From: a virus
Reading direction: 5' to 3' (one strand)
DNA length: 64,000 bases
IMG/VR virus record: IMGVR_UViG_3300045988_098456
Shown: piece after piece, positions 1,581 through 62,688 of the stretch
Layout: each line of letters opens with the position of its first letter
How positions within the stretch are numbered: the stretch's first letter is position 1
Notes under the pieces: model-generated
Told to the model about the DNA's origin: nothing
The model's input: the letters and a program-made list of their open reading frames with translations, nothing else
Databases searched by the model: none
Translations under genes and position numbers: made by a program

Positions 1581-1592
1581 GGAGGATAAGCA

Positions 1593-2219: not shown

Positions 2220-2221
2220 TT

Positions 2222-2763: not shown

Positions 2764-2766
2764 CAT

Positions 2767-3030: not shown

Positions 3031-3033
3031 CAT

Positions 3034-3740: not shown

Positions 3741-3747
3741 GGTTGAT

Positions 3748-4745: not shown

Positions 4746-4750
4746 GGCTT

Positions 4751-4990
4751 ATGAAGGAAATGTTCTTTAAGAGTGTAGAGTTCCGTGAAGTCCAGCATTT
4801 GGCTTTCTCGGATGAATACATAACCGCATATGTATCTGTGAATAATGTTCCGAAGATATACATGAGTGTTAATACACCTCGTGACGAATATGGGTTTGTG
4901 AAAGGCAAGGCAAAACGTTACTTTAGAGTAGGGTTAGGGAAATGGCTCACCGAACGAGCGTTTGTTAAGAAATATTTTAGTGAAGAATAA
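4751..4990 (+). CDS. hypothetical protein (79 aa)
   Basis: Track ORF. Confidence 0.55.
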   Translation: MKEMFFKSVEFREVQHLAFSDEYITAYVSVNNVPKIYMSVNTPRDEYGFVKGKAKRYFRVGLGKWLTERAFVKKYFSEE

Positions 4991-5995: not shown

Positions 5996-5998
5996 GAT

Positions 5999-6145
5999 AT
6001 GGACGAAGCTTTTAAGAAAGAACTTATAGGGCATTGTAAAAGGCAAATGCAACGCTTTGAGAGAATGGGAAGAACAGATTCTTTTGCATATAAAGAACAT
6101 GCTGTTTTACTTAGTTTTCTTGAACGTCCATATTTACATTTTTAA
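5999..6145 (+). CDS. hypothetical protein (48 aa)
   Basis: Hand-translated ORF in the gap. Confidence 0.4.
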   Translation: MDEAFKKELIGHCKRQMQRFERMGRTDSFAYKEHAVLLSFLERPYLHF

Positions 6146-6158
6146 TATAACAATAGTT

Positions 6159-6476
6159 ATGATAGACGATAAGAAAATAGAAGGAGCCGCAAGAAGATAC
6201 AGCAAAGTGACGGATTGTGATAATGAAGAAGCCTTATTAATTGAAGAAGGCTTTAAGGAAGGTGCTGAGTGGGCTATCAATGATTTCTTGAAGAACTTGT
6301 GGCATCAAACAAATAAGGAGCCAGAAGGATATGATGAATGGATATTGCTGCACTATAATGTAGGCAACTATTATTCATTAGCTCAAGTCAAAGAATTCAA
6401 GTCTTGGAAAGGATTTGTTGAGAATATGCCTATAGACGGGTGGCTCTATATTGATGATTTATTCTCAAAGGAATGA
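6159..6476 (+). CDS. hypothetical protein, MIDDKKIE family (105 aa)
   Basis: Start moved to MIDDKKIEG by analogy with paralog 44082..44474 (shared AxWAINxxLKxLWH, WLYIDDL). Confidence 0.6.
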   Translation: MIDDKKIEGAARRYSKVTDCDNEEALLIEEGFKEGAEWAINDFLKNLWHQTNKEPEGYDEWILLHYNVGNYYSLAQVKEFKSWKGFVENMPIDGWLYIDDLFSKE

Positions 6477-20290: not shown

Positions 20291-20345
20291 TTTTGTGTCT
20301 AAGTGTATAATATGAGTTAAAAGACAAAAGAAATACATTAAAAAG

Positions 20346-20377
20346 TTTGCATATTTCAGATATTCTTTGTATCTTTG
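20346..20377 (+). promoter_or_regulatory. promoter TTTG-N20-TATCTTTG
   Basis: Exact consensus. Confidence 0.75.
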
Positions 20378-20413
20378 CAATGTAATTAAGAAACAAGGTT
20401 ATTAATTTGAAAA

Positions 20414-20437
20414 GGTGAGACACACCGTAAAAACTGT
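20414..20437 (+). promoter_or_regulatory. leader hairpin box, copy 1 (GGTGAGACACACCGTAAAAACTGT)
   Basis: 4-bp stem, 5-nt loop; ends 8 nt before the ATG. Confidence 0.75.
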
Positions 20438-24843: not shown

Positions 24844-24883
24844 TGTAAAATACATCAAAAGAATATAAATAAACACTAAAACG

Positions 24884-24915
24884 CTTGCAAGAATAAGAAA
24901 AAATGCTTATCTTTG
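24884..24915 (+). promoter_or_regulatory. promoter CTTG-N20-TATCTTTG of the tRNA cassette
   Basis: 20-nt spacer; about 140-nt leader before the first tRNA. Confidence 0.7.
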
Positions 24916-25060
24916 CATCGTGTTTGAAACAGATGGCCTTCTGAGAGGTCGCTTCTACCATAATAAGTCAAGACTTAGGAGTTTACGGCAGGGGTTCCAT
25001 GTTACCCAGCCCAGCTAGACTATAACAAGGAAACTCTAATTAGGGTGAGAATCCCTAGAT

Positions 25061-25133
25061 GCTGCATTAGACAAGTGGTTAAGTCGCCAGCTTTTCACGC
25101 TGGTATTCAAAGGTTCGAATCCTTTATGCAGTA
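25061..25133 (+). tRNA. tRNA-Glu (anticodon TTC)
   Basis: Hand-folded cloverleaf: acceptor GCTGCAT/ATGCAGT (G-T at 1-72), anticodon arm CCAGC-TTTTCAC-GCTGG, T arm AAAGG-TTCGAAT-CCTTT. Confidence 0.8.
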
Positions 25134-25139
25134 CTAAAT

Positions 25140-25210
25140 TGCCCTATGGTGTAATGGTAACACTACAGGTTTTGGTTCTGTCATTAGTGGTTCGAATCCA
25201 CTTGGGGCAA
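25140..25210 (+). tRNA. tRNA-Gln (anticodon TTG)
   Basis: Acceptor TGCCCTA/TGGGGCA, D arm GTGT-AATGGTA-ACAC, anticodon arm ACAGG-TTTTGGT-TCTGT, T arm AGTGG-TTCGAAT-CCACT. Confidence 0.8.
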
Positions 25211-25240
25211 CAAGATGGAATTGGTATATGTTCCACACAA

Positions 25241-25325
25241 GGTGCGATATTCAAGCGGTTAAAGAAGATAGACTGTAAATCTATTCCCATTGTGGGTTCG
25301 GTGAGTTCGAATCTCCCTTGCACCA
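25241..25325 (+). tRNA. tRNA-Tyr (anticodon GTA), long variable arm
   Basis: Acceptor GGTGCGA/TTGCACC, anticodon arm ATAGA-CTGTAAA-TCTAT, 15-nt variable arm; one T-C mismatch in the T stem. Confidence 0.75.
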
Positions 25326-25347
25326 CGAGTAACTTTTGTCGATTACG

Positions 25348-33325: not shown

Positions 33326-33516
33326 GTAACGATACACTCTTAGGGCAGATTGCATCTTTTATGGATAGTCTGCACTTATCTTACCAAGAAGTAGTAAAAG
33401 AGATACCTTATAGAAACTTATTGCTGATGGCAAAAGACAAGCAAAGAGTAGCATGTGGTGATGTAATGTATGAGGTAACGGAAGAAGAGTTTGGAATGAA
33501 CTTCAAAAAAGGATAA
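33211..33516 (+). CDS. -1 frame extension (T-like); could also be a separate 51-aa ORF from ATG 33361
   Basis: -1 frame is open from 33211 with no ATG for 50 codons and overlaps the G-like ORF by 115 nt. Confidence 0.4.
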   Translation, partial: RGCQWLTNGLFLNLYKGFSDAINFGEECGKDDSKTTTIGNDTLLGQIASFMDSLHLSYQEVVKEIPYRNLLLMAKDKQRVACGDVMYEVTEEEFGMNFKKG

Positions 33517-33557
33517 GTTTAAAATAATGCAAATAAAGTATTAAAAGCACTAAAACA

Positions 33558-33589
33558 TTTGCAAGTTAGCGAGATATTTTTTATCTTTG
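33558..33589 (+). promoter_or_regulatory. promoter TTTG-N20-TATCTTTG
   Basis: Exact consensus. Confidence 0.75.
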
Positions 33590-33643
33590 CAAGCGCAGAA
33601 CAAAAAAGGATAAAATGGCGATTTAAGAAATTGATAAGATATT

Positions 33644-33730
33644 AGAGACACGAAACCCGATGGACTATACCGAAAGGCAGTCCGAGTCACTATTCCTTTG
33701 ACTTTGCAATCGGTAGTTTCGTGTTTTTGT
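33644..33730 (+). ncRNA. three-way-junction leader RNA ending in a U-run (attenuator or riboswitch-like)
   Basis: P1 33648-33661/33709-33724 (14 bp, 2-nt bulge), P2 33662-33683 with GAAA tetraloop, P3 33685-33703, then TTTTTGTGTTT. Confidence 0.55.
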
Positions 33731-33742
33731 GTTTAAAATAAG

Positions 33743-34045
33743 ATGCAAGACGTAAGGTTGATATTTGAGATACTGGTTTCTATGTTGCTTTGCGTTTGTC
33801 TCATATTGCTTGCTGTAAGTAGATATAGGCAAAAGAAAAAGCGTGAAGAACCGGAGCGAAAGGAAATGGACTTGATAGACTTCTTTTCTTTGGGAGGAGT
33901 TGCCTATTATTGGAACAAAGGTGGTAAGCAGCAGAAATGCTACACATACGAAGAATTTCTGAAAATCAAGGCTGACTACGTGGAGCTTTGGTTGAATCAG
34001 AACAGATATATTTTTAACTCTCAATTAGATTGCGATGATATATAG
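33743..34045 (+). CDS. small membrane protein (100 aa)
   Basis: LIFEILVSMLLCVCLILLAVS TM segment followed by a basic stretch. Confidence 0.55.
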   Translation: MQDVRLIFEILVSMLLCVCLILLAVSRYRQKKKREEPERKEMDLIDFFSLGGVAYYWNKGGKQQKCYTYEEFLKIKADYVELWLNQNRYIFNSQLDCDDI

Positions 34046-34265
34046 AGTATTTGTTTTGTTGCCGACAATAGTTGTATCAGATGGCATTGTTGGTATAGCT
34101 TGGCTAGGAAAGGTTTTTAGCTTGCGATATGGAAAGAACAAGAAAAAGAGCAAGAATGTATCCTTAATGATAGGATATAACACAGGAATGTCTCTTAAGT
34201 CGAAAATAGACGATAACGCTGCGGATGATTATTTAAGACGCATTGCCGAAGAAAACAGAATCTAA
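34035..34265 (+). CDS. small protein with N-terminal hydrophobic segment (76 aa)
   Basis: Track ORF. Confidence 0.45.
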   Translation: MIYRVFVLLPTIVVSDGIVGIAWLGKVFSLRYGKNKKKSKNVSLMIGYNTGMSLKSKIDDNAADDYLRRIAEENRI

Positions 34266-34269
34266 ATTC

Positions 34270-34289
34270 AAGGGTTAGAAACCCTTTTT
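34270..34289 (+). terminator. rho-independent terminator
   Basis: AAGGGTT-AGA-AACCCTT followed by TTT. Confidence 0.65.
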
Positions 34290-34358
34290 ACAACCATATT
34301 ACTTGTGGTTATTTTTATACATCGGTTTTTATTAACGATTGTTTTTTATGGTAGATAA

Positions 34359-35465
34359 ATGTATAAAAACGAGCACAAGTTCCCTTATAGATGGACTAAA
34401 AAAGATGCTAATTTCACAAAAGACAAAGGTAAGGTGATGTCTTGCTTTTGTTGTGGAGGTGGAAGTTCCTTTGGTTACAAACTAGCTGGCTACGATGTTG
34501 TAGCCTGTAATGAGATAGACCCAAAGGTTATGAAGATGTACTTGAAGAATCACGATGTCAAGTATTCTTTCAATTGTGATATTCGTGAGTTGATTGCCAA
34601 TATCAATATGGGGGGGCATATTATGAAAGAAGAATTGCATAATCTGGATATATTGGATGCTAGTTTCCCTTGTTCGGTATTCAGTATTGCAGGTGATCGT
34701 GAAAAGGCTTGGGGAAAGGAAAAAGTATTCAGAGAAGGTCAGAAGGCACAAAGGCTTGACGATTTGGCTTTCTACTCTATCGACCTCGCTAAAGAACTAA
34801 AGCCAAAGGTAGTTGTTTTTGAGAATGTCCAAGGTTTGTTACAAGGTGAAGCTGTCGAGTACGTAAAAGAGATTTATAAGCAGATGGATGATGCCGGATA
34901 TATCTTGCAACATTGGCTTCTCAATGCACGTAACATGGGTGTTCCTCAAAACAGACCTAGGGTGTTTTTTATCGGGTTACGTAAAGACCTTTGCGAGCCG
35001 TTTATGGTTCAGAAGGATTTATTCGAGCGAGTGCCTAAGATTGATATGGACTTTAATGAGAAAGAAATTGTCTTGGATGAGTTTTCTGACTATAGTGGAA
35101 GACAGATTCCTAAAGGAGTGATGAAGTATTGGGTGCATAGAAATGAGAAAGATAATTCTATCGGTGATATTGTCAAGCGGATGGATAATCGTCTTTCTAT
35201 GTTTAATAATATGTTTCTTAAAAAGAATAAGGTATGCAATACTATATCAGCAATGGAAGATAGGCTTGTGTATTTTGATAATCCAAGCTATATTTCTGCG
35301 CATGATACGATTTTAGCATCAACATTTCCTGAAGATTATGATTTCGATGGCATGAAGCCTTGGTTTGCTTGCGGAATGTGTGTTCCTCCAGTTATGATGG
35401 CTAATGTTGCTACGAGAATCTGGGATTGTTGGTTATCAAAGATTAAAAAGGAGGAATGCGCATGA
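34359..35465 (+). CDS. DNA (cytosine-5) methyltransferase
   Basis: FCCGGGSSFG (motif I), FPCSVFS (IV), FENVQGL (VI), QNRPRVFF (VIII), GMCVPP (X). Confidence 0.9.
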   Translation: MYKNEHKFPYRWTKKDANFTKDKGKVMSCFCCGGGSSFGYKLAGYDVVACNEIDPKVMKMYLKNHDVKYSFNCDIRELIANINMGGHIMKEELHNLDILDASFPCSVFSIAGDREKAWGKEKVFREGQKAQRLDDLAFYSIDLAKELKPKVVVFENVQGLLQGEAVEYVKEIYKQMDDAGYILQHWLLNARNMGVPQNRPRVFFIGLRKDLCEPFMVQKDLFERVPKIDMDFNEKEIVLDEFSDYSGRQIPKGVMKYWVHRNEKDNSIGDIVKRMDNRLSMFNNMFLKKNKVCNTISAMEDRLVYFDNPSYISAHDTILASTFPEDYDFDGMKPWFACGMCVPPVMMANVATRIWDCWLSKIKKEECA

Positions 35466-36199
35466 TAACAGCAAGTATGACTTCGGGTGATATACGTAGA
35501 GTACGAAACTTAGATGAAGCTAGAATCTATGAGTTTCAGATGCGAAAAGCTAATGAGCTTAAACGTGAAATGAGAAAGCAGAACGTAAGGCAAATAACAA
35601 AGACCTTTGAGTTTGCTACACCGAATGCCGATTATTTCATCGTTGTCGGTGTAAAACATGGCGATGTATTTGCTTCTGGTGTGTTCATTTATCTGAAGGA
35701 AACCAACGAGTATATTCCTATGAGTAGAAACGAGGGGTATAGCGAAGATTGTTTTGCTATGAGCGTTCATTTTCTGAAGAGATTTGCAGAAAGGTTTTTG
35801 AAAAAAGACTTACCGATTGCCAAGATATTGCAAAAGATATATACATCGTTTACAGGTGCGGTTCAGCTCTATAGTGATGGCAAGACAAGAAGGGTGGTAT
35901 TTGCAATTCCGGAAGGGCTTATACTCACAGAATACGAGCAAGAAAAGCATATCATCCACTACAAAACCTTTGTAAGCATGGATATGCTAAAGAAGACACA
36001 GAAGCGAAGTTACGAGAAGATAAGTGCATTTCTCATGGAGTCTTGTCAGCAAATAGCTAAAGCAAGAGAAACCGGAAATGACGAAAGGCTGTGCGTTGTG
36101 TACAGAAGGTTTTACAATGATATTGATTTGCTAGATACAAAGGAGGCGCAAGCCATATATTCAAGTTTCTTTGAAAAAGGAGGTAACAATGAAAGATAA
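35456..36199 (+). CDS. hypothetical protein (247 aa)
   Basis: Track ORF inside the modification island. Confidence 0.6.
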   Translation: MRMITASMTSGDIRRVRNLDEARIYEFQMRKANELKREMRKQNVRQITKTFEFATPNADYFIVVGVKHGDVFASGVFIYLKETNEYIPMSRNEGYSEDCFAMSVHFLKRFAERFLKKDLPIAKILQKIYTSFTGAVQLYSDGKTRRVVFAIPEGLILTEYEQEKHIIHYKTFVSMDMLKKTQKRSYEKISAFLMESCQQIAKARETGNDERLCVVYRRFYNDIDLLDTKEAQAIYSSFFEKGGNNER

Positions 36200-36692
36200 A
36201 TGTATAACAAGGTTTCTTGGTGATATAAAGCCTATAAAGAATTACGAAAGGTATTATGTTAGCAAGCTGGGACATGTTTTTACTATTGGGAGAACGTCTC
36301 AATTAAAGGAAATCGCTCCTTGCAAGACACCAAAAGGTTATCTGAAGGTATGGCTTTACAAGAATGGAAAGCGCAAGATGTTTTATATCCATCGTTTGGT
36401 AGCTCAGGCTTTCTTGGAGAATCCAGAAGCGTTGCCGATGGTGAATCATAAGGATTTCGACAAGACGAATAATGATGTAGACAACTTGGAGTATTGCACC
36501 GCAAGATACAATGTGATTTATTCTGCTATAGCAAAGAAAACATCTTCCGAATACTTGGGTGTGACTTGGAATAAGAGTGTAAGAAAATGGCAAGCGCAGT
36601 ATCAGATAGGTAAAAAGAAAATATATATAGGTTGCTTTGATACGCAACAAGAGGCTCATGAAGCTTATGTTAACGCTATAAAAGAGATTTGA
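36171..36692 (+). CDS. HNH homing endonuclease with AP2 DNA-binding domain
   Basis: YIHRLVAQAF...VNHKDFDKTNNDVDNLEY (HNH_3-like) and YLGVTWNKSVRKWQAQ...GCFDTQQEAHEAY (AP2). Confidence 0.75.
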   Translation: MKKEVTMKDKCITRFLGDIKPIKNYERYYVSKLGHVFTIGRTSQLKEIAPCKTPKGYLKVWLYKNGKRKMFYIHRLVAQAFLENPEALPMVNHKDFDKTNNDVDNLEYCTARYNVIYSAIAKKTSSEYLGVTWNKSVRKWQAQYQIGKKKIYIGCFDTQQEAHEAYVNAIKEI

Positions 36693-36693
36693 T

Positions 36694-37407
36694 ATGCTTG
36701 AATTTGATAGAATATACAATTCCGACTGCATAGAAGGAATGAAACAAATAGAGAGCGGGAAAGTAGATTTAATTGTTACTGACCCACCATATTGTATCTC
36801 CTATAAGACGGGATGGAGAGCAGACGACCATCGTTTTTCGAAGGAAATACTCAATGACGATAATGAGCAATTGATTATTGATTATATGAGCGAATGCTAC
36901 CGGATTTTGAAGGATGATAGTGCTGCTTATATCTTCTGTAGTGCAAAGACCTTGGACTTTTTTATGCAACAAGCGAGGAACGCAGGGTTTACCATTAAGA
37001 ATGTGATAATTTGGCGAAAGAACAACCATACGGCTGGAGATTTAGATGCGCAATATGGTCAATGTTACGAGCCAATCCTGTACTTAAATAAAGGCAGACG
37101 AATCATAAACGGAAAGCGTTTGGAGGATGTGTGGGACTTTGATAGAGTTCCATCAGATAAATTGGTACATCAGAACGAGAAACCAATCCCCTTGCTTATG
37201 CAATGTATCTTGAAATCATCGAACGAAGGAGATTTGGTGTTTGATGGCTTTATGGGCAGCGCAAGTACTGCTCTGGCTTGTATGCGGACAAATCGGAATT
37301 ACCTTGGTTTTGAATTGGATGAGGATTATTTCAATGTGGCACAAAGAAGAATTAAGGAAGAAATGTTAAATCAAAAAGATATGTTTGGATATGCTGGAGT
37401 TAAATAG
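36694..37407 (+). CDS. beta-class N6A/N4C DNA methyltransferase (canonical DPPY)
   Basis: DLIVTDPPY then C-terminal VFDGFMGSASTALAC. Confidence 0.85.
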   Translation: MLEFDRIYNSDCIEGMKQIESGKVDLIVTDPPYCISYKTGWRADDHRFSKEILNDDNEQLIIDYMSECYRILKDDSAAYIFCSAKTLDFFMQQARNAGFTIKNVIIWRKNNHTAGDLDAQYGQCYEPILYLNKGRRIINGKRLEDVWDFDRVPSDKLVHQNEKPIPLLMQCILKSSNEGDLVFDGFMGSASTALACMRTNRNYLGFELDEDYFNVAQRRIKEEMLNQKDMFGYAGVK

Positions 37408-38107
37408 AATTTATCAAGGTGATTGTCGAAAGCTTTTAAAGCTGATTGATAGTGATAGCATAGACCTCGTATGTTCTGATGTGGCTTATCCTGTTCAGTC
37501 TAGGGGTGGCTCAGGGAGTATGGGAGGATATTGGACGGAATCTCAAACAAGAAAGGGCAAGATATTCAAGAATAACGATATTGATATTTCGGACTACATC
37601 AATGATTTGTACCGGATATTAAAGGACAGGTCGCATTGCTATCTGATGTGTAATGATTATAATTTAATGCACTTTCTTGATGTGGTCGGAAAAAGTGAGT
37701 TCCATTTTACCAAATGCTTAATATGGGATAAGTGCGCAAAAATATGTGGCCGCTATTATATGGCACAGAAAGAGTATATCATCATGCTACGCAAAGGTAG
37801 TGATAGGCCGATAAATGAATGTGGTACGTCTGACATTCTGAGTGTTCCTATTCCAACCAACAAGCGCAAGGATAAGGATGGTTTGATTAATCAGACTGAA
37901 AAACCTGTAAAGTTGATGGAGACATTAATCAGAAACTCGACAAATGTTGGTGATGTTGTTCTAGACCCATTCATGGGGAGCGGTACAACGGCAAGAGCTT
38001 GCGTAAACCTTGAAAGAAAGTATATAGGTTTTGAGATAGACCAGCGACAAGTCGATTTTGCCAATAACGAATTAAAGAACATGAGTAGGCAATTAAGTCT
38101 TTTTTAA
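37385..38107 (+). CDS. beta-class DNA methyltransferase paralog with DVAY in place of DPPY
   Basis: DLVCSDVAYP; VLDPFMGSGTTARAC. Confidence 0.7.
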   Translation: MDMLELNRIYQGDCRKLLKLIDSDSIDLVCSDVAYPVQSRGGSGSMGGYWTESQTRKGKIFKNNDIDISDYINDLYRILKDRSHCYLMCNDYNLMHFLDVVGKSEFHFTKCLIWDKCAKICGRYYMAQKEYIIMLRKGSDRPINECGTSDILSVPIPTNKRKDKDGLINQTEKPVKLMETLIRNSTNVGDVVLDPFMGSGTTARACVNLERKYIGFEIDQRQVDFANNELKNMSRQLSLF

Positions 38108-38117
38108 AACTATTGGT

Positions 38118-38336
38118 ATGTGCAAGGTGTTTTGTTGTAATCCTGTTGTAAGAAATGGGAATAAAGAAACAACGGATGCTCTTATAAGAGCTATGAGAGG
38201 CGAAGCCTTAAAACGAGGGTTGGTACGTGATGAATTGATAGGTTTTTGCAACCGATTCTTGAGAGAAGGCGAAATCAAAGCTTGTATAGAGCATTCGCTA
38301 GATAATTTCAAACGTTATTTTTGGAGGTATCATTGA
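38118..38336 (+). CDS. hypothetical protein (72 aa)
   Basis: Track ORF. Confidence 0.45.
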   Translation: MCKVFCCNPVVRNGNKETTDALIRAMRGEALKRGLVRDELIGFCNRFLREGEIKACIEHSLDNFKRYFWRYH

Positions 38337-38337
38337 T

Positions 38338-38967
38338 ATGAGAAGAAGAAAGTTGAACAAGTCTCCAGTGCTAGGCTTCTGCGGATTTGTTATCGGTTAC
38401 GAATGCAAGGAAAAGGGAATAAAGCTGATGGAGTGCGATAAGGCGCAAGCAGATGCAATCATAGTTCCTCATCACTTTTCACACAAGGTAACGAAGAATA
38501 GTTGCTTGAATCTTTTGGTATTGTATAAGGATAAGATAAGTGGTGCAATGCAAATAGGGTATGGAATCCGACCGCACATCAAGACTGAAAAGTGCGAAGT
38601 GTTGGATTACCATCAAGTGAGGGAATTTGACAGAATGTGGTTGTCTGATGATATGCCAAAGTTTAGCGAGACGATTTGCCTATCTCTCTTGCATAAGTAT
38701 ATTAGGGCAACACATAAGGAAATCAAGTACCTTATTTCTTATGCCGATACGTCCATAGGTAACAAGGGAACTATATATAAAGCTGCAAACTATGAGCATA
38801 TTGATACCATTAAGGCAGATTTCTATGTGTTACCAAGTGGTGAGCGTGTGCATCCGGTTACTATGTGGCATCGGCACAAGACAAGAGCATGGGAGGTTCT
38901 GACGGAACTATACCCAGGAATAAAAAAGGCAGAAGGGTTTCAACTTAAATTTCTGAAGAAGTTATGA
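38338..38967 (+). CDS. Mom-like acyltransferase-fold DNA modification protein (candidate)
   Basis: PHHFSH, REFDRMWL and LISYADTSIGNKGTIYKAANY resemble the Mu Mom family blocks as I remember them. Confidence 0.5.
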   Translation: MRRRKLNKSPVLGFCGFVIGYECKEKGIKLMECDKAQADAIIVPHHFSHKVTKNSCLNLLVLYKDKISGAMQIGYGIRPHIKTEKCEVLDYHQVREFDRMWLSDDMPKFSETICLSLLHKYIRATHKEIKYLISYADTSIGNKGTIYKAANYEHIDTIKADFYVLPSGERVHPVTMWHRHKTRAWEVLTELYPGIKKAEGFQLKFLKKL

Positions 38968-39182
38968 AGAAAAGAAATAAATATATTCCTTGTCATTTGC
39001 ATCCAGATCCTGAGCATTGGGTTAGAAAAGGTCAATCTTGGAAGGCGAAGGTCGCTTATGAAAGCGAGGATGATGCTTGGGAGTTTCTGAATCAGAATCC
39101 GAAGTTACGGGCACAAGGTATGGCGGTGTATCGGTGTAGGATATGCAACAAATATCATATATGGCACAAGAATAACAAATAA
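38964..39182 (+). CDS. small zinc-ribbon protein (72 aa)
   Basis: PCHLHP...CRICNKYH; ATGA overlap with the Mom-like gene. Confidence 0.5.
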   Translation: MKKRNKYIPCHLHPDPEHWVRKGQSWKAKVAYESEDDAWEFLNQNPKLRAQGMAVYRCRICNKYHIWHKNNK

Positions 39183-39197
39183 AAAATATAAACAGCA

Positions 39198-39479
39198 ATG
39201 ATAGTAATAAAAATCAAAACATGGAAAGACTGGAAGAAGGACTTTCTTGATTGGGTGCAAGCACCTAGGCGCAGTACTTGCAAGGAGTACGTAGATTATA
39301 TGGAGGCTTTACAAAATCAGGTTCTCTACAAAATAATAAACGACACTTGCGATAAATACGGAAATATGCGTGAGGATCAAATTCAAGACATCACCGAGGC
39401 AGTCGAGAGATGCGTTGCTGAGTGTGCCAAAGAAACACGCAAGTTAATCGATGAATGTCAGCCCGCAAAATTATTCTAA
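39198..39479 (+). CDS. hypothetical protein (93 aa)
   Basis: Track ORF. Confidence 0.55.
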   Translation: MIVIKIKTWKDWKKDFLDWVQAPRRSTCKEYVDYMEALQNQVLYKIINDTCDKYGNMREDQIQDITEAVERCVAECAKETRKLIDECQPAKLF

Positions 39480-39541
39480 GACTGCAACTTTCATTACACT
39501 GCCGTGAAATTGTTTAACTGATAGATTTAAAACAACAAAGT

Positions 39542-40234
39542 ATGATAGAACTGAATAAGAAAAGTATGATAGAACAGAATAAGATATATAATGAAGATTG
39601 CCTAGAAGGAATGAAAAGGATTCCTGACGGGAGCGTAGATTGCATAGTGACGGATATACCCTACAATGAATGCAATCGTACCGACAACGGTCTAAGGAAC
39701 TTAGATAAGGATAAAGCAGACATCGGAATATTTGATGTTGCTATGCTGACAGAAAATCTATGCGAAAAGACCAAAGGCAGTATCTATATGTTTTGCGGTT
39801 TTAATCAAGTTTCTACTATTCGGCAAGCTATGTCACAAAAAGGTCTGAGCACAAGAATTGTCGTATGGGAGAAAACGAATCCATCGCCTATGAATGGTTC
39901 GGTTATTTGGCTAAGTGGAGTTGAGTTGTGCGTTTATGGTAAAAAGCAAGGCGCAACATTCAATTTCCATTGTAAGAACACCGTTTTCAGATACCCTTGT
40001 GGGGGGGGTAAAATTCATCCAACACAGAAGCCAGTGGAGTTGATGTCACAGCTAATAGCTGCAAGTACAAAAGAAGGCGATACCGTCTTAGACCCATTCA
40101 TAGGCAGCGGCACTACCGCTATCGCTTGCATCCGTGAGAAGCGCAATTTTATCGGTTTTGAACTGAACAAGGAATATTACGACAAGGCTTGCAAGCGTAT
40201 TCGTTTAGAACAAGCGCAGCCTGTGTTATTTTAA
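39542..40234 (+). CDS. beta-class DNA methyltransferase paralog with DIPY motif
   Basis: DCIVTDIPYNE; VLDPFIGSGTTAIAC. Confidence 0.8.
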   Translation: MIELNKKSMIEQNKIYNEDCLEGMKRIPDGSVDCIVTDIPYNECNRTDNGLRNLDKDKADIGIFDVAMLTENLCEKTKGSIYMFCGFNQVSTIRQAMSQKGLSTRIVVWEKTNPSPMNGSVIWLSGVELCVYGKKQGATFNFHCKNTVFRYPCGGGKIHPTQKPVELMSQLIAASTKEGDTVLDPFIGSGTTAIACIREKRNFIGFELNKEYYDKACKRIRLEQAQPVLF

Positions 40235-40253
40235 ATCATAAATAGTTGAGATT

Positions 40254-40640
40254 ATGAAAAAAGAAGATAGACTTAAAATATATCGCAAATACGATGGGCA
40301 TTGTGCTTATTGTGGCAAGAGTATAGAGTATAAGGATATGCAGGTTGACCATCTTGTTCCGAAGAATCGAGGTTGTTACTCTCGGTGGAGCGACAAGGAG
40401 GGAAAGTTTGTAGTATTTCATGGCGATGATTGCATGGAGAACTATATGCCATCTTGCAGGTCTTGTAACCTTCGTAAGCGTGATATGAGTTTGGAACAAT
40501 TTCGCTCAGAGATTACAAGACAGGCTAAAGGATTGCTTAATGGCAAAGCTTCTTTTCAGGTAAAGATGTCGCTAGCTTATGGTTTAATCGAAGAGCACTT
40601 TGATAGACAAATTGAGTTCTACTTTGAGAAATTTAAATAG
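40254..40640 (+). CDS. HNH endonuclease
   Basis: CAYCGK...VDHLVPKN...CRSCNLRK. Confidence 0.8.
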   Translation: MKKEDRLKIYRKYDGHCAYCGKSIEYKDMQVDHLVPKNRGCYSRWSDKEGKFVVFHGDDCMENYMPSCRSCNLRKRDMSLEQFRSEITRQAKGLLNGKASFQVKMSLAYGLIEEHFDRQIEFYFEKFK

Positions 40641-40648
40641 TTGAGAAT

Positions 40649-40933
40649 ATGAAGAAGTTTAAGAAGTCGATAGAGATTAGCACTGAGAATATTTCAGACG
40701 TTCTTCAAGTGCCAATTGTTACAAGTTTATACAAGACTAAGAATTTTAAAAATCCTTGTCTTGAAGGTCGTAGCGTTCCTTATGATACTATAGCATTGAT
40801 GTATGTTCATATCGAAGGCTTTGATAGCGATTTTTGTATTGACCAAGGCGACATTCTCGCTCTTGATATTTGTGATACTTGGTATGCTTTTTCGAGGAAA
40901 GGATGGGAAGAACATAAAAACGATGAGGTATGA
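40649..40933 (+). CDS. hypothetical protein (94 aa)
   Basis: Track ORF. Confidence 0.5.
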   Translation: MKKFKKSIEISTENISDVLQVPIVTSLYKTKNFKNPCLEGRSVPYDTIALMYVHIEGFDSDFCIDQGDILALDICDTWYAFSRKGWEEHKNDEV

Positions 40934-41340
40934 AGATGAAAGGATATTACGAATACGACCAGCCAATTTACCCACACTTATTGTGTGTTGGGGTTGGGTT
41001 GCAGTTTGAGGATGCAAAGAAAGCATTCTTGAATAATGATGGTACGGATATTGAAAAGTACGATTTTTTAAATGGTGATGGATTTACTTATTACGGACTT
41101 CACATAAGAGAAACAGGAAGAAAGTGCGTTCTTGTTTTATTCAGTAGCAGTAAGGCTATGCGTATGAATGTAATTTGTCATGAGGCTAGTCACGCTTGCG
41201 ATGCTATCGAGGGTAATATTGAAATGGAACATGGTGGAGAACCATCTGCTTATCTGATAGGTTGGATAGCATCATGTATCAATAAGGCTCGTTTGGGAAT
41301 TGGAGATTTCGTTGAAATCGTAGATAAGGAAGAAAAATAG
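40930..41340 (+). CDS. putative zinc metallopeptidase (HEXXH)
   Basis: VICHEASHACD motif. Confidence 0.5.
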   Translation: MKMKGYYEYDQPIYPHLLCVGVGLQFEDAKKAFLNNDGTDIEKYDFLNGDGFTYYGLHIRETGRKCVLVLFSSSKAMRMNVICHEASHACDAIEGNIEMEHGGEPSAYLIGWIASCINKARLGIGDFVEIVDKEEK

Positions 41341-41369
41341 CCCAAATGCAAAATACCCTTTGGGGTTTG

Positions 41370-41413
41370 CCCCATCACTATATATATAGTAATGTAGTGG
41401 TGGGGATTTTTTT
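41370..41413 (+). terminator. rho-independent terminator
   Basis: CCCCATCACT-N16-AGTGGTGGGG followed by T7. Confidence 0.8.
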
Positions 41414-41483
41414 GTTAACGTCAGCAAATTATTTGTCTGTATCATTATAGAGTGTTAAAAGATAAAAGAAACACATTAAATAT

Positions 41484-41515
41484 TTTGCATGTTTCAAATA
41501 TTATTTGTATCTTTG
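41484..41515 (+). promoter_or_regulatory. promoter TTTG-N20-TATCTTTG
   Basis: Exact consensus; flanks alignable with the 20.3-kb promoter. Confidence 0.75.
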
Positions 41516-41552
41516 CATCGTAATTAAGAAATAAAGGTTACTAATTAAAAAT

Positions 41553-41576
41553 GGTGAGACACACCACAAAAACTGT
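41553..41576 (+). promoter_or_regulatory. leader hairpin box, copy 3 (GGTGAGACACACCACAAAAACTGT)
   Basis: Ends 9 nt before the ATG at 41586. Confidence 0.75.
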
Positions 41577-42563: not shown

Positions 42564-42854
42564 ATGGTAAAGGTTATGGAAACAAAAGTAGAAGTAAGAA
42601 CTATTCCTTTGCATGGATTGTTCGTCCATCGCAAGCAGGTTTGGCGTTCACTTGGTAAGCTGAGAGCAGAAAGCCATTCTACGACAGCGCAAAAGGTGTT
42701 TATGAATGATCATGATACCGAGGTATCAACTGAGAATGCTGATTTCATTGATGGCTTGAAAGTCACTCCTTATGATGGTGAGCTTCCAAAAATATCTAAA
42801 AACGTTGGTAGTATGAGTTACTACCAGTATTGTTTAACGCAAAAATTGGTTTAG
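42564..42854 (+). CDS. hypothetical protein (96 aa)
   Basis: Track ORF. Confidence 0.5.
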   Translation: MVKVMETKVEVRTIPLHGLFVHRKQVWRSLGKLRAESHSTTAQKVFMNDHDTEVSTENADFIDGLKVTPYDGELPKISKNVGSMSYYQYCLTQKLV

Positions 42855-42856
42855 TT

Positions 42857-43870
42857 ATGGAAACTGAGATTAATATAGTAGAAATCCTAAATGATAAACC
42901 ACAAGGAACTAAGTTATATTCTTCCGCTTGTGGTAAATGCAATTTAGAAGAAGTAGATGATAAAAGTTTCAAAATATCCTTTTATAATTCAAAGTTCGGT
43001 TTTATGAATGGTGGAGAAGGGTATCTTGATAAAAATGGCAAATTGTATGATGATGGAGAATGTGTCGTTTTTCCATCAAAGGAAATGCGTAATTGGTCTA
43101 AATTCGCTTGGAAGAAAGGCGATGTACTGGTTAGCAATGATGGTAAATGCAAGGTTATCTTCGAGAGATTTGATGATGATACTTATACTTCATTTGTTGG
43201 TAAGTACTATGTTGAATGCTATGGCAAAAATGATGAGCTACAAGATTATGAGGAAGAACATTATGGTGATACCGTTAATTACACAAAAGAATCCGAAGAA
43301 GCAGCTCAGACCTACATCAACACTATCGAGGAACGTTTGGGCGGAAAGTTGAACCATGAAACTCTGGAGATAGAGAATGCTCAGCCTGAGTTCAAGGATG
43401 GGGATATAGCTTTTGCCGATTATGGTAATAGACAAGATGTATTTATAGTATCAGATAAAACGGATTTATCAGAAGGTTATAGCTCATTTATTTCTTTAGA
43501 TTTAAATATTCTAACTTTGAGTATGGGCTGTAGAACTACTTTCTTTAAGAAAGACATTTGTAAACTTCGCCTTGCCACAGAAGCAGAGAAACAACAACTA
43601 TTCTCAGCTCTCGAAAAGGAAGGCAAGTCTTGGGATGCTGAGAAGAAAGCTATTATGGACTTGAAGCCTAAGTGCGAGTTTAAGCCATTTGATAAGGTGC
43701 TTTCAAGAAGATGTTCTAAAGATTATTGGGTATTAAACTTCTATTCACATAAGACAGATTATTATCATGTATGTATTGATGGAAGTTCAAACTTGGATTG
43801 CATCCCTTACAACGAAGAGACAGCACATCTACTAGGAACGACTGATAATTGGGAAGGAGGTAAGCAATGA
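42857..43870 (+). CDS. hypothetical protein, paralog of 4991..5995
   Basis: Shared blocks (see 4991..5995); first ATG is at 42857. Confidence 0.75.
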   Translation: METEINIVEILNDKPQGTKLYSSACGKCNLEEVDDKSFKISFYNSKFGFMNGGEGYLDKNGKLYDDGECVVFPSKEMRNWSKFAWKKGDVLVSNDGKCKVIFERFDDDTYTSFVGKYYVECYGKNDELQDYEEEHYGDTVNYTKESEEAAQTYINTIEERLGGKLNHETLEIENAQPEFKDGDIAFADYGNRQDVFIVSDKTDLSEGYSSFISLDLNILTLSMGCRTTFFKKDICKLRLATEAEKQQLFSALEKEGKSWDAEKKAIMDLKPKCEFKPFDKVLSRRCSKDYWVLNFYSHKTDYYHVCIDGSSNLDCIPYNEETAHLLGTTDNWEGGKQ

Positions 43871-44085
43871 TTAGAGACGATGCAAAGATAATTGTAACAC
43901 CAACTGGTGTATCACTTAAAGAAGCCTTGACTAGTGAAGAAATCAATGCAATCAATGAAGCTCATATCTATAGGGATTATGATAGTATTCCACATCTGCA
44001 ACTCGCTTGCAACCCTCCTAGTGGCAAGGAAAGACGTAGAACTAGAAGGATGTTAGAACTTAGAAAAAGAAATGGTAGATTATGA
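43867..44085 (+). CDS. hypothetical protein (72 aa)
   Basis: Track ORF. Confidence 0.5.
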   Translation: MIRDDAKIIVTPTGVSLKEALTSEEINAINEAHIYRDYDSIPHLQLACNPPSGKERRRTRRMLELRKRNGRL

Positions 44086-44474
44086 TAGACGATAAGAAAA
44101 TAGAATCTGCAAAGGAAGAAATCTATGAAGATAGATTCTTGCTTAATGGTGAAGAGATAGTCTTCAACAATGATGAAAAGGAAGAAATGTTCTACAAAGA
44201 GGACATCAAAGAAGCCATTGGACTAGGTGCTAAGTGGGCTATCAATGAGCTATTGAAGGACTTGTGGCATCCTGTTAGCGAAGAGCCGAGAAAAGATGTT
44301 TCCATTATAGTAGAAACACATAATGACAAGAATATGTTTTACTATGCTTGGAACAGATGGCAAGATAACTTTTATCCATCGTGGACTGACGCAGTTCTTT
44401 GTAGTAGGGTTTCTCGTTGGCTTTATATTGATGATTTACTGCCAAAAAAGGAGGTGAGCAATGAAAGAGCTTAA
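44082..44474 (+). CDS. hypothetical protein, MIDDKKIE family
   Basis: Paralog of 6159..6476. Confidence 0.6.
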   Translation: MIDDKKIESAKEEIYEDRFLLNGEEIVFNNDEKEEMFYKEDIKEAIGLGAKWAINELLKDLWHPVSEEPRKDVSIIVETHNDKNMFYYAWNRWQDNFYPSWTDAVLCSRVSRWLYIDDLLPKKEVSNERA

Positions 44475-44784
44475 AGATTTGGTTGTTGGTGATGATGTAC
44501 TAGTTACAGGTATGTATTACAGACGTATCGCCAAGGTTGATAAAGTGACAAAGACTCAAATTATTGCTAATAACGCTAGATTTAGAAAAGATTCGGGCTG
44601 GCAATGTGGTAGCGATAGCTGGGATAGGAAAAGTATATCTGTTCCTACAGAAAAGGAAATATTAGATATAAAAGAAGAGAATCTTCGCAAGATTCTCATC
44701 CACACTATCAGTTCTTTTGATTTTGAACGTTTATCAACAAATGATTTAAAACAAGTGTACAATATTGTAAAAGGCAAAGAATGA
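44461..44784 (+). CDS. hypothetical protein (107 aa)
   Basis: Track ORF. Confidence 0.55.
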   Translation: MKELKDLVVGDDVLVTGMYYRRIAKVDKVTKTQIIANNARFRKDSGWQCGSDSWDRKSISVPTEKEILDIKEENLRKILIHTISSFDFERLSTNDLKQVYNIVKGKE

Positions 44785-44966
44785 ACGAGATTAAAGTAGG
44801 CGAAAGAGTAACTATTATTCTTGAAGCTGTTGAACATGACACTTGTGAAGGATGCTTCTTTAAAGGAGTGGCTGGCTATTGTGGCGCAGCTCCACTTGGA
44901 TTGAAGTGTCTTCCTAAATATCGTTCAGACAAAAAGAATGTAATCTTTAAAGAAGTTAAGGAGTAA
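44781..44966 (+). CDS. hypothetical Cys-rich protein (61 aa)
   Basis: Track ORF. Confidence 0.5.
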   Translation: MNEIKVGERVTIILEAVEHDTCEGCFFKGVAGYCGAAPLGLKCLPKYRSDKKNVIFKEVKE

Positions 44967-44970
44967 AAAT

Positions 44971-45201
44971 ATGAATGGATTGTTATCAATGATTGATATG
45001 CAAACTGAATTGGACTATCTGATAGGCGATTTACCTGCATGCTTTGGAGATACACAATTATCTATTCCGAAAGGAAACGTTCCATCTGATAAGCAGAAGT
45101 GTCAGCAAAAGGAACAGCATGAGTTTACCATCAAAGGAATTAAGATTATGGCTTCTTCTAAGAAAGATGCTATCAAAAAGTATAATCATCATAAAAAGTA
45201 A
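44971..45201 (+). CDS. hypothetical protein (76 aa)
   Basis: Track ORF. Confidence 0.5.
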   Translation: MNGLLSMIDMQTELDYLIGDLPACFGDTQLSIPKGNVPSDKQKCQQKEQHEFTIKGIKIMASSKKDAIKKYNHHKK

Positions 45202-45206
45202 GGCGT

Positions 45207-45374
45207 ATGGCAAAGAGAATTATTGTAAAGTTGCATCCAGAACGATACATAGTTCAAGACAATATGCTATTCGGTTGTATTCCATTCATCTATGTGACAC
45301 GAAAGACATTCAATACTATAGATGAAGCAAGAGAGTATGTTGGAGAACCTTGTGATGAGTATTTGTTTGTTTAA
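45207..45374 (+). CDS. hypothetical protein (55 aa)
   Basis: Hand-translated; begins at a TAAGGCGTATG junction and stops inside cassette h; preferred over track ORF 45044..45325. Confidence 0.45.
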   Translation: MAKRIIVKLHPERYIVQDNMLFGCIPFIYVTRKTFNTIDEAREYVGEPCDEYLFV

Positions 45375-45403
45375 CGCCTTCGGGCATAAAAGATATTAGT
45401 ATG
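45369..45403 (+). repeat. start-associated cassette, copy h
   Basis: 33 nt identical to copy c (456-488). Confidence 0.8.
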
Positions 45404-45769
45404 AAGATATTCAATAATTTAAAATCATCATTGAAAGATATAAATGGCGCAACCTACATCAATGGTGTTAAGATAGATGGAGCGCAGTCGATAATCATTG
45501 AAAACGGCAAGGTCTATGTGAACGGTAATTTGCAAGGAGACCTCAGTACACCTTCTATAGAGATAAAGGTAGAAGGTAATGTTGGCAGTATCAATACTAC
45601 TAGTGGCGATGTAACCATCAATGGTGATGCAAACTCTATCAATACAGTAAGTGGTGACGTAGATTGCCACGAAGTCAAAGGTAGTGTGCATACAATGAGC
45701 GGTGATGTTAATTGTGGTGATATTGCTGGTAGCGTAAGTACTATTAGTGGTGATGTGTATCAGAAGTAA
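45401..45769 (+). CDS. beta-helix-like repeat protein (SGDV repeats, bactofilin-like)
   Basis: TSGDVTINGD, VSGDVDCHE, MSGDVNCGD, ISGDVYQ periodicity. Confidence 0.45.
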   Translation: MKIFNNLKSSLKDINGATYINGVKIDGAQSIIIENGKVYVNGNLQGDLSTPSIEIKVEGNVGSINTTSGDVTINGDANSINTVSGDVDCHEVKGSVHTMSGDVNCGDIAGSVSTISGDVYQK

Positions 45770-45824
45770 ATAACCATCCTATCCTGTAAAATGGAGAGGG
45801 TAAAAAGAAGAGAATATGAGATTA
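45770..45824 (+). repeat. second-type start cassette, copy 2
   Basis: 45793-45824 identical to 1309-1340; upstream hairpin arm related. Confidence 0.75.
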
Positions 45825-46049
45825 TTAACAAAGAAAAAGAAAAATGAGGCATTAAAAAGAATGCTGGCAAATGCTATTATTGCTAGGGATGCTGTAATGA
45901 AGTTTAATGATATAGACAAGAAATCAGATGCTTGTTATCATATATCAAATAACTTGGCAGAAGCTGCTTATGCAATTGGTGGAAAAGATGCTATGATTGC
46001 GATTGGAAAAGCATATGTTGATTATATCAATAAGAAAGATAAGCAATGA
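45816..46049 (+). CDS. hypothetical protein (77 aa)
   Basis: Track ORF. Confidence 0.55.
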   Translation: MRLLTKKKKNEALKRMLANAIIARDAVMKFNDIDKKSDACYHISNNLAEAAYAIGGKDAMIAIGKAYVDYINKKDKQ

Positions 46050-46207
46050 GTACAGAAAAAGCTATTAAGCACATTAAGACTATAAAGTCTTATATTACTT
46101 GCATTCATGAAGATTTATCAGAAGGTAAAAAAATAAAGCCTTTCGGTTTAGCATACAAGTTTGCAATACAAGAATGTGATAAGGCACTTAAAGAGTTGGA
46201 GGACTAA
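46046..46207 (+). CDS. hypothetical protein (53 aa)
   Basis: Hand-translated; ATGA overlap. Confidence 0.4.
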   Translation: MSTEKAIKHIKTIKSYITCIHEDLSEGKKIKPFGLAYKFAIQECDKALKELED

Positions 46208-57559: not shown

Positions 57560-57583
57560 ACAGTTTTTATGGTGTGTCTCACC
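57560..57583 (-). promoter_or_regulatory. leader hairpin box, copy 4
   Basis: Reverse complement reads GGTGAGACACACCATAAAAACTGT; starts about 10 nt after the promoter -7. Confidence 0.75.
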
Positions 57584-57593
57584 AAGACGATTG

Positions 57594-57625
57594 CAAAGGT
57601 ACGAAGAATAATTCAATAATGCAAA
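57594..57625 (-). promoter_or_regulatory. leftward promoter TTTG-N20-TACCTTTG
   Basis: Plus-strand CAAAGGTA-N20-CAAA. Confidence 0.75.
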
Positions 57626-58603: not shown

Positions 58604-58676
58604 TTGCTGCTGTGGGGGTCGAACCCACAACCTTTTTCCGTGATAGGAAAACATTCATCCATTGAACTAAGCAGCA
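58604..58676 (-). tRNA. tRNA-Asp-like with anticodon ATC (A34)
   Basis: Acceptor TGCTGCT/AGCAGCA, Asp-like D arm TAGTTCAATGGATGAAT, loop CTATCAC (canonical Asp is CTGTCAC), T arm GTGGG-TTCGACC-CCCAC; one extra nt (6-nt variable or 8-nt loop). Confidence 0.6.
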
Positions 58677-58729
58677 CCACCCCATAGGGGAATTTCAAAC
58701 TAATTAAATATTAAGAAAAATGAAAAGCC

Positions 58730-59188
58730 TTATTCCTTCGGTTTGCCAATATGCAAGAATACATCCATGATTGATGTTTCCTTAAGGCTTGTAATATTGT
58801 AATCAATCATAGTCTTACACATAATCTCATCTACATTCTTACGAGCCTTTTCAATGGTATCACCCTGTACAAGATAACGAACCTTGGTCTTCTTCTCCTT
58901 GTTTGATTTTTCATCAATAGTAATCATGTTAATACTGCAATCGTAGTATTTATCCTCACTATCAACTTCTGAAAGGAACAACTCGGAAAAGCCAGCTTTC
59001 TTCATAGTGACAATCTCCATATCACCATTTGTGTACACCGCCATTTCTTCTGTAGTCTTAGCCTCGCATTCTGACCATGACAAGGCATCTACAACATATT
59101 GCTCTGTAGTTTTAGCGTTAGTTCCGTCTTCTAGAGTTTTCTCATAACGAACACCTACGATAAAATACTTTCCTGTTAATGATTTCAT
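58730..59188 (-). CDS. DUF4494-like protein
   Basis: KYFIVGVRYEKTLEDGTNAKTTEQYVVDALSWSECEAK; start moved off the tRNA. Confidence 0.55.
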   Translation of the reverse strand: MKSLTGKYFIVGVRYEKTLEDGTNAKTTEQYVVDALSWSECEAKTTEEMAVYTNGDMEIVTMKKAGFSELFLSEVDSEDKYYDCSINMITIDEKSNKEKKTKVRYLVQGDTIEKARKNVDEIMCKTMIDYNITSLKETSIMDVFLHIGKPKE

Positions 59189-59214
59189 ATTCTTTATTTT
59201 TATGTTAGAGAATG

Positions 59215-59288
59215 TGGTATCGGTTAGGCTTGAACTCACGACCTAATGTTTAGGGAACATTTGCTCTATCCAACTGAGCTACGACACC
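59215..59288 (-). tRNA. tRNA-Arg(CCT)-like with T32-C33 loop
   Basis: Acceptor GGTGTCG/CGATACC, D arm GCTC-AGTTGGAT-AGAGC, anticodon arm AATGT-TCCCTAA-ACATT, T arm GTGAG-TTCAAGC-CTAAC (one G-A mismatch). Confidence 0.55.
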
Positions 59289-62435: not shown

Positions 62436-62459
62436 ACAGTTTTTATGGTGTGTCTCACC
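62436..62459 (-). promoter_or_regulatory. leader hairpin box, copy 5
   Basis: Reverse complement reads GGTGAGACACACCATAAAAACTGT; ends 9 nt before the ATG at 62426. Confidence 0.75.
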
Positions 62460-62494
62460 TTTTTATGTAGTATTACAAAAAATATATTAAATTT

Positions 62495-62526
62495 CTTGCA
62501 AGTTACGATATTTTTATGTATATTTG
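62495..62526 (+). promoter_or_regulatory. rightward promoter CTTG-N20-TATATTTG (repressor gene)
   Basis: 20-nt spacer. Confidence 0.65.
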
Positions 62527-62550
62527 CAACATATTTAATGTTTACGAGTG

Positions 62551-62582
62551 CAAAGATAAGAAAAGTATCGCAAATATGCAAA
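62551..62582 (-). promoter_or_regulatory. leftward promoter TTTG-N20-TATCTTTG
   Basis: Plus-strand CAAAGATA-N20-CAAA; predicted start lies to the right of the rightward start. Confidence 0.7.
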
Positions 62583-62688
62583 TAAATTAGTGTTTAAATA
62601 TACTATATTAACCTTTATTATCTTTAAACTCTAAATCTTTACATAAATTAAGTTACACATGCGCTTACTGCGTATTAAATTTTAGGTT

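Follow-up and report, generated by a model that had tools for sequence, protein, structure and literature searches.

A three-way-junction leader RNA running into a U-run in Bacteroidota gut phages, a putative branched leader terminator or attenuator

In phage lambda, the pR'-tR' unit gives the '6S' leader transcript and is governed by Q antitermination, with a simple hairpin as tR' and a DNA-binding Q protein which acts at the promoter. The put RNA of HK022, with two stem-loops, and the pseudoknotted multi-helix EAR RNA of Bacillus are cis-acting processive antitermination RNAs without a U-run of their own. The C4 RNA of P1/P7 and the CI RNA of P4 are immunity RNAs, encoded in the leaders of antirepressor operons and acting as antisense RNAs. 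Type-I 3'UTR-derived small RNAs have their own promoter and share a terminator with the upstream mRNA. The Bacteroidota hosts are known for unusual promoters, for translation initiation which is not led by Shine-Dalgarno sequences and for few characterised RNA regulators, and to our knowledge almost nothing has been described of gene regulation in the gut phages of this phylum. In the HMP-PP (thiS) riboswitch, the aptamer is embedded in the terminator (PMC6478431).

The RNA described here is from an uncultured tailed phage of the human gut, of which a 64-kb stretch of DNA (the window) was analyzed. It is a leader RNA of ~135 nt, and a three-way junction (33649-33723, plus strand) makes up its 3' two-thirds. 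The locus resembles lambda pR'-tR' in having a strong promoter, a seemingly efficient terminator within ~130-200 nt, a presumed short default leader RNA, small membrane-protein genes first downstream and a long operon that relies on read-through, but no Q-like protein was found here and DNA-modification genes stand in the place of lysis and structural genes. With put and EAR it has in common a folded RNA made early in an operon with several terminators, whereas the junction has its own U-run and another architecture, and no homology was detected. Like the C4 and CI RNAs, it is a leader-encoded phage RNA in the range of ~80-130 nt; antirepressor-like genes (Bro-N or AntA) lie directly downstream in two diverged lineages, L201 and L204, and a CI-like S24 repressor is present. 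Unlike them, it has no Rfam C4 match, no conserved complementarity to the downstream start and no ant-like gene next to it in the window lineage. A C4-like antisense RNA was rejected after comparison by RNAduplex with 1.5 kb of downstream sequence in four lineages, which gave no shared site. The order of gene, promoter, structured RNA and shared terminator is that of type-I 3'UTR small RNAs, but here the genes immediately downstream rely on read-through. The HMP-PP riboswitch is similar in its promoter-proximal leader, in a structured domain which is also the terminator stem, in a U-run directly after it and in a competing fold; it differs from the present element, which is a full 75-nt three-way junction without Rfam match, located in a phage ahead of non-metabolic genes.

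GenBank entry MT835576 ('Bacteriophage sp., human fecal samples') is 95% identical to a 2.6-kb piece around the junction, and this fragment was the only match in the INPHARED phage collection. Near-identical copies of the locus were present on more than 150 IMG/VR contigs of 64-130 kb, and the phage was seen in hundreds of human-gut assemblies. The sole cultured relatives of its major capsid protein (24-31% identity) were found in phages of Cellulophaga, Riemerella and Porphyromonas, all of them Bacteroidota. The promoter consensus of Bacteroides consists of TTTG at -33 and TAnnTTTG at -7 (PMC4747536). A promoter of this type is situated at 33558-33589 on the plus strand, with -33 TTTG at 33558-33561, a spacer of 20 nt and the -7 box TATCTTTG at 33582-33589. 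Transcription is expected to start around 33593-33597, and part of the GCAGA strand of the leader discussed below may fall upstream of the true start site. The pattern TTTG-N17-21-TAnnTTTG has 12 copies in the window against 2.3 expected, and the promoter at 33558-33589 is one of six copies in an extended promoter family (repeat family D1). Both promoter boxes are invariant in the population, and no stretch of the locus varies more than the spacer.

Plus-strand copies of the promoter family were located at 20331-20380, 24869-24918, 26093-26142, 33543-33592, 41469-41518 and 62480-62529, and minus-strand copies at 57594-57625 and 62551-62582. Conservation in this family extends far past the -33 and -7 boxes (AAAnACAYTAAAAAGYTTGCA...TATCTTTGCA), which suggests an upstream element or a site for a common factor. 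An array of five tRNA genes (25061-25495, within the region 24884-25495, plus strand) is headed by a promoter and a ~145-nt leader; two further tRNAs are on the minus strand (58604-59288) and a truncated tRNA lies at the window edge (63937-63994, plus strand). Another leader (26146-26250, plus strand), which follows the promoter (26108-26139) at the start of the structural module, has a multi-branched fold of -28.7 kcal/mol (z -3.8, 0 of 200 shuffles), which includes a box-like GGUG...CACC hairpin and whose closing stem ends at the ATG at 26247. At 62480-63819, divergent promoters flank the gene of a 376-aa CI-like protein with a Peptidase_S24 (LexA/CI-like) domain, and the operon opposite to it encodes Rad52-like and helicase proteins; the region resembles one for immunity or early control. 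The phage further encodes several DNA methyltransferases and a Mom-like protein. Two paralogous gene modules, at ~1300-6300 and 42850-46070, share several segments of 73-97% identity (repeat families D3, D5, D7, D10, D18 and D19).

The leader starts with an A-rich 5' part (33590-33648), in which GCAGA (33595-33599) and AAAGGA (33605-33610) are complementary to parts of the junction. It also contains a weak hairpin P0 (33619-33633) and the conserved segment GAUAAGAUAU (33633-33642). A mini-ORF, AUG GCG AUU UAA, is present at 33616-33627; a leader peptide was rejected, since some population variants have lost its AUG and L201 has no such mini-ORF. The junction is closed by P1, whose 5' strand (33649-33661) consists of CACGAAAC and CCGAU and whose 3' strand (33709-33723) consists of AUCGG, a UA bulge at 33714-33715 and GUUUCGUG, together giving 8+5 bp (13 bp) and possibly a further pair, A33648-U33724. 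The base of P1, formed by the pairs C-G/A-U/C-G/G-C, abuts the U-run UUUUUGUGUUU at 33724-33734. Hairpin P2 (33662-33683) is composed of GGACU/AGUCC, an internal loop AUA/C and CC-GAAA-GG, and its GNRA tetraloop GAAA is invariant. Hairpin P3 (33684-33704) pairs GAGUCA with UGACUU, including a closing G.U, around a 9-nt loop, CUAUUCCUU, which ranges from 4 to 9 nt across lineages; loop and 3' strand of P3 are complementary to the leader. The strands J1/2 and J2/3 are only 0-1 nt long, while J3/1 has 4-5 nt (UGCA at 33705-33708, UGCAA in L203 and L201), is invariant in all lineages and lies within an invariant UUUGCAA.

These three helices had been drawn by eye in the earlier note, along with the U-run after P1, the GNRA loop and the location close to the promoter. 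All of them are borne out by the sequence, as are the coordinates stated in that note, and folding by RNAfold recovers the junction as the minimum-free-energy (MFE) structure of 33640-33735, with -33.1 kcal/mol (z -4.92); dinucleotide shuffles gave -18.6 +/- 2.9, and none of 200 was as stable. The centroid structure of this segment is the same junction, which is also retained by the centroid in a context of 171 nt. The predicted transcript start (33593-33600, GCGCAGA, or CGCAAAA in homologues) is complementary to the distal U-tract (33726-33734, UUUGUGU, or UUUUGCG), and the same complementarity is present at the same positions in L201, L203 and L204. Such pairing would lengthen P1 in read-through transcripts, or it may reflect only the A-rich and U-rich composition of the two segments.

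The assignment of GAGACAC, at the 5' edge of P1, to the core of a leader box found elsewhere in the phage is not supported. The box has no match at 33645 even with three mismatches, and GAGACAC of P1 is not conserved, reading GAGAGCAC in L203 and CAAAACAC in L201. The leader box itself is a separate and real motif of 22 nt, GTGAGACACACnnTAAAAACTG, with four copies against 0.01 expected (20415-20436 and 41554-41575 on the plus strand, 57561-57582 and 62437-62458 on the minus strand). Each copy is placed 14-95 nt past a Bacteroidota-type promoter, and three of the four sit 11-12 nt before a start codon. The box folds as a GGUG-AGACA-CACC hairpin and has no Rfam match; a compensatory variant, CGUG-AGACA-CACG, precedes a Bro-N gene in the related phage L323 (3955-3980). 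A nut/boxB-like site and a translational operator are two possible roles for it.

Diverged copies of the element were reached through the downstream 100-aa protein and the contigs encoding it. Among these, L203 is moderately diverged and L201, L202 and L204 are strongly diverged. Folded separately, the window, L203, L201 and L204 all have this junction as their MFE structure, and it is also the RNAalifold consensus. In a manual structural alignment of the window with L201, 15 of the 52 paired positions differ and 14 of these 15 still pair. Six base pairs are changed on both sides with pairing kept, namely two in inner P1 (G-C to A-U and A-U to C-G), two in P2a, one in P3 and the pair that closes the GAAA loop; two pairs have turned into wobbles and one deletion has left a bulge. 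By helix, P2 has three compensatory pairs in L201/L204 plus one change to a wobble, and P3 has one of each. The covariation in homologues which the earlier note had proposed as a check is present. In the CM alignment A2, 96% of cells were paired compared to 25-44% when the partners were slid, and its covariation score was equalled by 0 of 500 shuffles. The plain MAFFT alignment A3, in which P1 has its 3' strand correctly aligned, showed 100% of cells paired and retained two compensatory P1 pairs. Taking both alignments together, 0-2 of 500 shuffles scored as high and the slid controls were 25-47% paired. The covariation rests essentially on one deep split, that of window/L203 from L201/L204. 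The G.U closing P3 is invariant, L201 has U.G pairs, and CM scores were 126-128 bits forward and 14 in reverse; these place the RNA on the plus strand, and a minus-strand RNA or a palindrome acting at the DNA level was rejected accordingly.

Conservation in the population was analyzed by comparing 72 distinct IMG/VR loci with the window. In this sample, which is biased by having been picked via the adjacent 100-aa protein, the mean mismatch fraction was 0.0020 in the 5' leader and 0.0030 in the junction, compared to 0.126 in the promoter spacer, 0.042 between U-run and ATG and 0.016-0.060 in the neighbouring ORFs. In the 72 genomes, variation in leader and junction is thus 10-40 times lower than in the promoter spacer and the genes next to them, and despite the sample bias the directly flanking spacer and tail are variable. 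Two loci were reached independently of the others. In L318, the downstream protein is 89% identical and the junction RNA is unchanged; in L338, found through the upstream protein (84% identical), the junction is kept and the 5' leader is diverged, with ~9 changes in its middle. In L203, L201, L204 and L338, the first 20 nt and the last 15 nt of the leader are retained and the P0 part is variable. Rare population variants in the stems are mostly wobble-compatible. The first five U of the U-run are invariant in ~200 loci, and its distal part varies yet stays U-rich. Covariation and conservation together show that the fold is under selection.

Outside this lineage of uncultured Bacteroidota gut phages the junction RNA was not found. 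Rfam 15 gave only tRNAs for the whole window at gathering thresholds, and at E<=10 no match in 33400-33900 overlapped 33596-33728; the lone overlap with the element was a 16-bit match to a Tetrahymena snoRNA (gathering 85), which starts in the distal U-run at 33729. The earlier note could not match the junction to a riboswitch class, and neither did the Rfam scan. Pattern scans (in IMG/VR with the dominant variant excluded) and the covariance model R1, applied to IMG/VR, JGI metagenomes and GTDB genomes, gave chance terminators only and no further members, and a DNA scan of 185,579 GTDB species genomes gave no copy. At the locus of a relative of the upstream protein (44% identity), promoter and RNA are both missing from the corresponding position, and Bro-N homologues in other elements are without the junction. 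The junction sequence does not appear in the supplementary text of two structured-RNA catalogues (PMC8040213, PMC10690425), which is one part of these sources, and an earlier listing is possible. Hammerhead and twister-sister cores were rejected, since the junction strands of 0, 0-1 and UGCA(A) contain no catalytic core and there is no Rfam match. Analogies to tRNA-like RNA, 6S, Y RNA and phi29 pRNA were likewise set aside, without sequence or model support. The junction is therefore a real, selected structured leader RNA outside the Rfam 15 families, and a putative leader terminator or attenuator of unusual branched form.

P1 followed directly by UUUUUGUGUUU has the stem and U-rich tract of an intrinsic terminator. 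The tail score nT was 4.1-4.5 in all lineages. The d'Aubenton-Carafa score d was borderline (-2.2 to -10.7) owing to a 'hairpin' length of 69-76 nt, its formula having been designed for neither branched stems nor Bacteroidota, and a simple terminator scan did not flag the junction. Stem and tail point to a branched intrinsic terminator, while the other terminators of the phage are ordinary hairpins. Elsewhere in the phage the usual intergenic order is gene, ordinary hairpin terminator, promoter, leader and gene. At 33516-33743, no terminator was found ahead of the promoter, and the junction with its U-run, downstream of the promoter, is the sole putative one in this interval and the only one between the late structural operon and a 7.7-kb downstream block. 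Consequently the junction would also have to stop the late structural transcripts. In L201, L203 and L204, the promoter-RNA unit is ~230 nt away from the late operon.

The first start codon downstream, the ATG at 33743, is 19 nt past the P1 stem, and across lineages the distance from U-run to ATG is 12-16 nt. In the window it is followed by genes of two predicted single-pass membrane proteins of 100 and 76 aa without family match (33743-34265, plus strand). The link of the RNA to these two proteins, made in the earlier note, is correct for the window but not essential, as the RNA directly precedes Bro-N in L201 and AntA in L204. The RNA travels with the promoter and not with a particular gene. 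Three tandem hairpins with U-runs (34270-34289, 34292-34316 and 34320-34347, plus strand) sit between the second membrane-protein gene and a C5 methyltransferase gene, and they are conserved with base changes in L201 (4563-4650) and L203 (1118-1200). The rest of the block (34359-41340, plus strand) encodes the C5 methyltransferase, orf247, an HNH protein, two N6/N4 methyltransferases, a Mom-like protein, another methyltransferase and small ORFs. No TTTG/TAnnTTTG promoter was found from 33730 to 41484. In an unrelated integrase/PcfJ/PcfK element (L319, 3940-4000, and also L320-L322), a 10-bp hairpin with a U-run lies ~12 nt ahead of a Bro-N start codon; terminators right before Bro/Ant genes may be a recurring layout in mobile elements of Bacteroidales.

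A second fold, which competes with the junction, was predicted for all five leaders studied. When transcripts are truncated ahead of the 3' strand of P1, the MFE structure pairs the leader with J3/1 and with the loop and 3' strand of P3 in five of five cases. In the window, GCAGA (33595-33599) pairs with UUUGC (33703-33707) and AAAGGA (33605-33610) with UCCUUU (33694-33699). The partner sequences differ among lineages, being AAAGGAUAAG:UUUAUCCUUU in L203 and GCAAA:UUUGC with CAAGAU:AUCUUG in L201 and L204. In the latter two, a 5-nt deletion in the P3 loop is accompanied by a gap of 2-5 nt, depending on the alignment, in the leader partner. Cognate combinations of leader and P3 were 3-9 kcal/mol better than cross-lineage ones. 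The pairing accounts for the invariance of UUUGCAA and of GCAAAAC at the leader 5' end. Leader-shuffle controls were equally good in 20, 11, 3, 47 and 41 of 500 for the five leaders, a moderate statistic because the pairing joins A-rich and U-rich segments. The evidence for this fold consists of energy calculations and a manual alignment, as indels shift the register of the pairing; it is suggestive and not decisive. The competing fold abolishes P3 and crosses P1 but sequesters neither P1 strand, so it could exclude the junction only topologically or kinetically. The junction is the MFE structure only after P1 is complete, and it is then 5-10 kcal/mol more stable than the competing fold. The leader-P3 pairing could instead be a pseudoknot within a single native fold.

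The best reading of the locus, at a probability of roughly 45%, is a two-state transcription attenuator for the DNA-modification block. The promoter at 33558-33589 would drive the ~135-nt leader, and the folded junction, with P1 running straight into the U-run, would act as a branched intrinsic terminator. When the junction forms, transcription would stop, the ~135-nt RNA would be released as the default product and late transcripts would be ended too. When the leader-P3 pairing persists, read-through would give transcripts of the DNA-modification genes. Candidate triggers are a phage or host protein, a modified RNA polymerase, the speed of transcription or a ligand held by the junction; among ~50 phage proteins scanned, most of them without annotation, no antiterminator or RNA-binding protein was recognised. 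Termination, switch and trigger are what we infer here, next to a fold, covariation, conservation and genomic context which the analysis established. The attenuator-like architecture suggested earlier is plausible, and a competing pairing such as that of leader and P3 is what a device of this kind requires, but the stability of the complete junction and the 13-bp P1 would suit a constitutive terminator equally.

A small-RNA gene is a doubtful but serious alternative to the attenuator. Here promoter, 135-nt RNA and terminator would form a stand-alone unit, its terminator common to the upstream late operon; the junction would be a stabilising scaffold or a protein-binding domain, the A-rich 5' part would act in trans as a seed on phage or host RNAs, and the downstream genes would be expressed through leakage only. 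The unit has its own consensus promoter, a strong U-tail and a very stable P1, its single-stranded leader is conserved as strongly as the junction, and its identity stays constant while the downstream gene changes, exactly at the place where the late operon needs a terminator. But neither the 64-kb window nor the mRNA downstream in four lineages yielded a convincing or consistent complementary target, the mid-leader varies in L338, and the conserved leader segments are already accounted for by the P3/J3-1 pairing. Moreover, a 7.7-kb block without other promoter needs substantial read-through anyway.

That the element is a plain, constitutively leaky terminator of the late structural operon is unlikely. 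Such a terminator would tune the promoter down by a fixed fraction without any switching, and the branched shape would only add stability against 3' exonucleases. This agrees with the lack of another terminator between 33516 and 33743, with the ordinary form of the other terminators of the phage, with the long P1 and with a complete junction far more stable than the alternative fold. However, where ordinary hairpins suffice elsewhere, the branches are kept here by six compensatory changes, an invariant GAAA loop and J3/1. The leader would be dispensable for a terminator, yet its conservation is as strong and its complementarity to P3 is lineage-specific, and the distance of ~230 nt from the late operon in L201, L203 and L204 also speaks against this explanation.

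Processive antitermination of the put/nut type is improbable. Leader and junction would load a factor on RNA polymerase or modify the enzyme directly, and the polymerase would then ignore the junction terminator and the three more at 34270-34347. A promoter-proximal structured RNA followed by four terminator-like elements in one promoterless block, the tandem ones conserved in L201 and L203, would fit such a system, all of this being evidence from context, but known put and EAR RNAs are themselves not terminators, no Rfam match was obtained, and no N-, Q- or NusG-like protein was recognised among the ~50 phage proteins scanned. A small-molecule riboswitch, with the junction as aptamer, P1 as terminator stem and a DNA-modification-linked cofactor as candidate ligand, is highly improbable, for although the conserved joining strand and tetraloop, the competing fold, the downstream methyltransferase/Mom genes and the precedent of a terminator-embedded aptamer (PMC6478431) favour it, there is no riboswitch family match, a single phage lineage carries the RNA, the first downstream gene is inconstant (membrane protein, Bro-N or AntA), a P1 of 13 bp is long for a switchable aptamer, and junction strands of 0, 0-1 and 4-5 nt leave little room for a pocket.

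The most conserved 135 nt of this phage are a non-coding folded leader before DNA-modification (anti-restriction) genes. The element is well defined, short and easily tested, whether it is an attenuator or a small RNA. As a conditional terminator, it would offer a compact and testable model of temporal control in these phages along with a new RNA fold; as a small RNA, it would be a candidate regulator acting from phage to host in a dominant gut phylum. It is rather unlikely that junction and leader represent a new class of phage regulatory RNA, which would either act in cis in antitermination or sense a ligand or phage protein from within the terminator. If they do, the RNA would time the expression of an anti-restriction block (several methyltransferases and Mom) in a phage that is among the most abundant of the Bacteroidota phages in the human gut, and phages of this phylum would have their first described switch of this kind.
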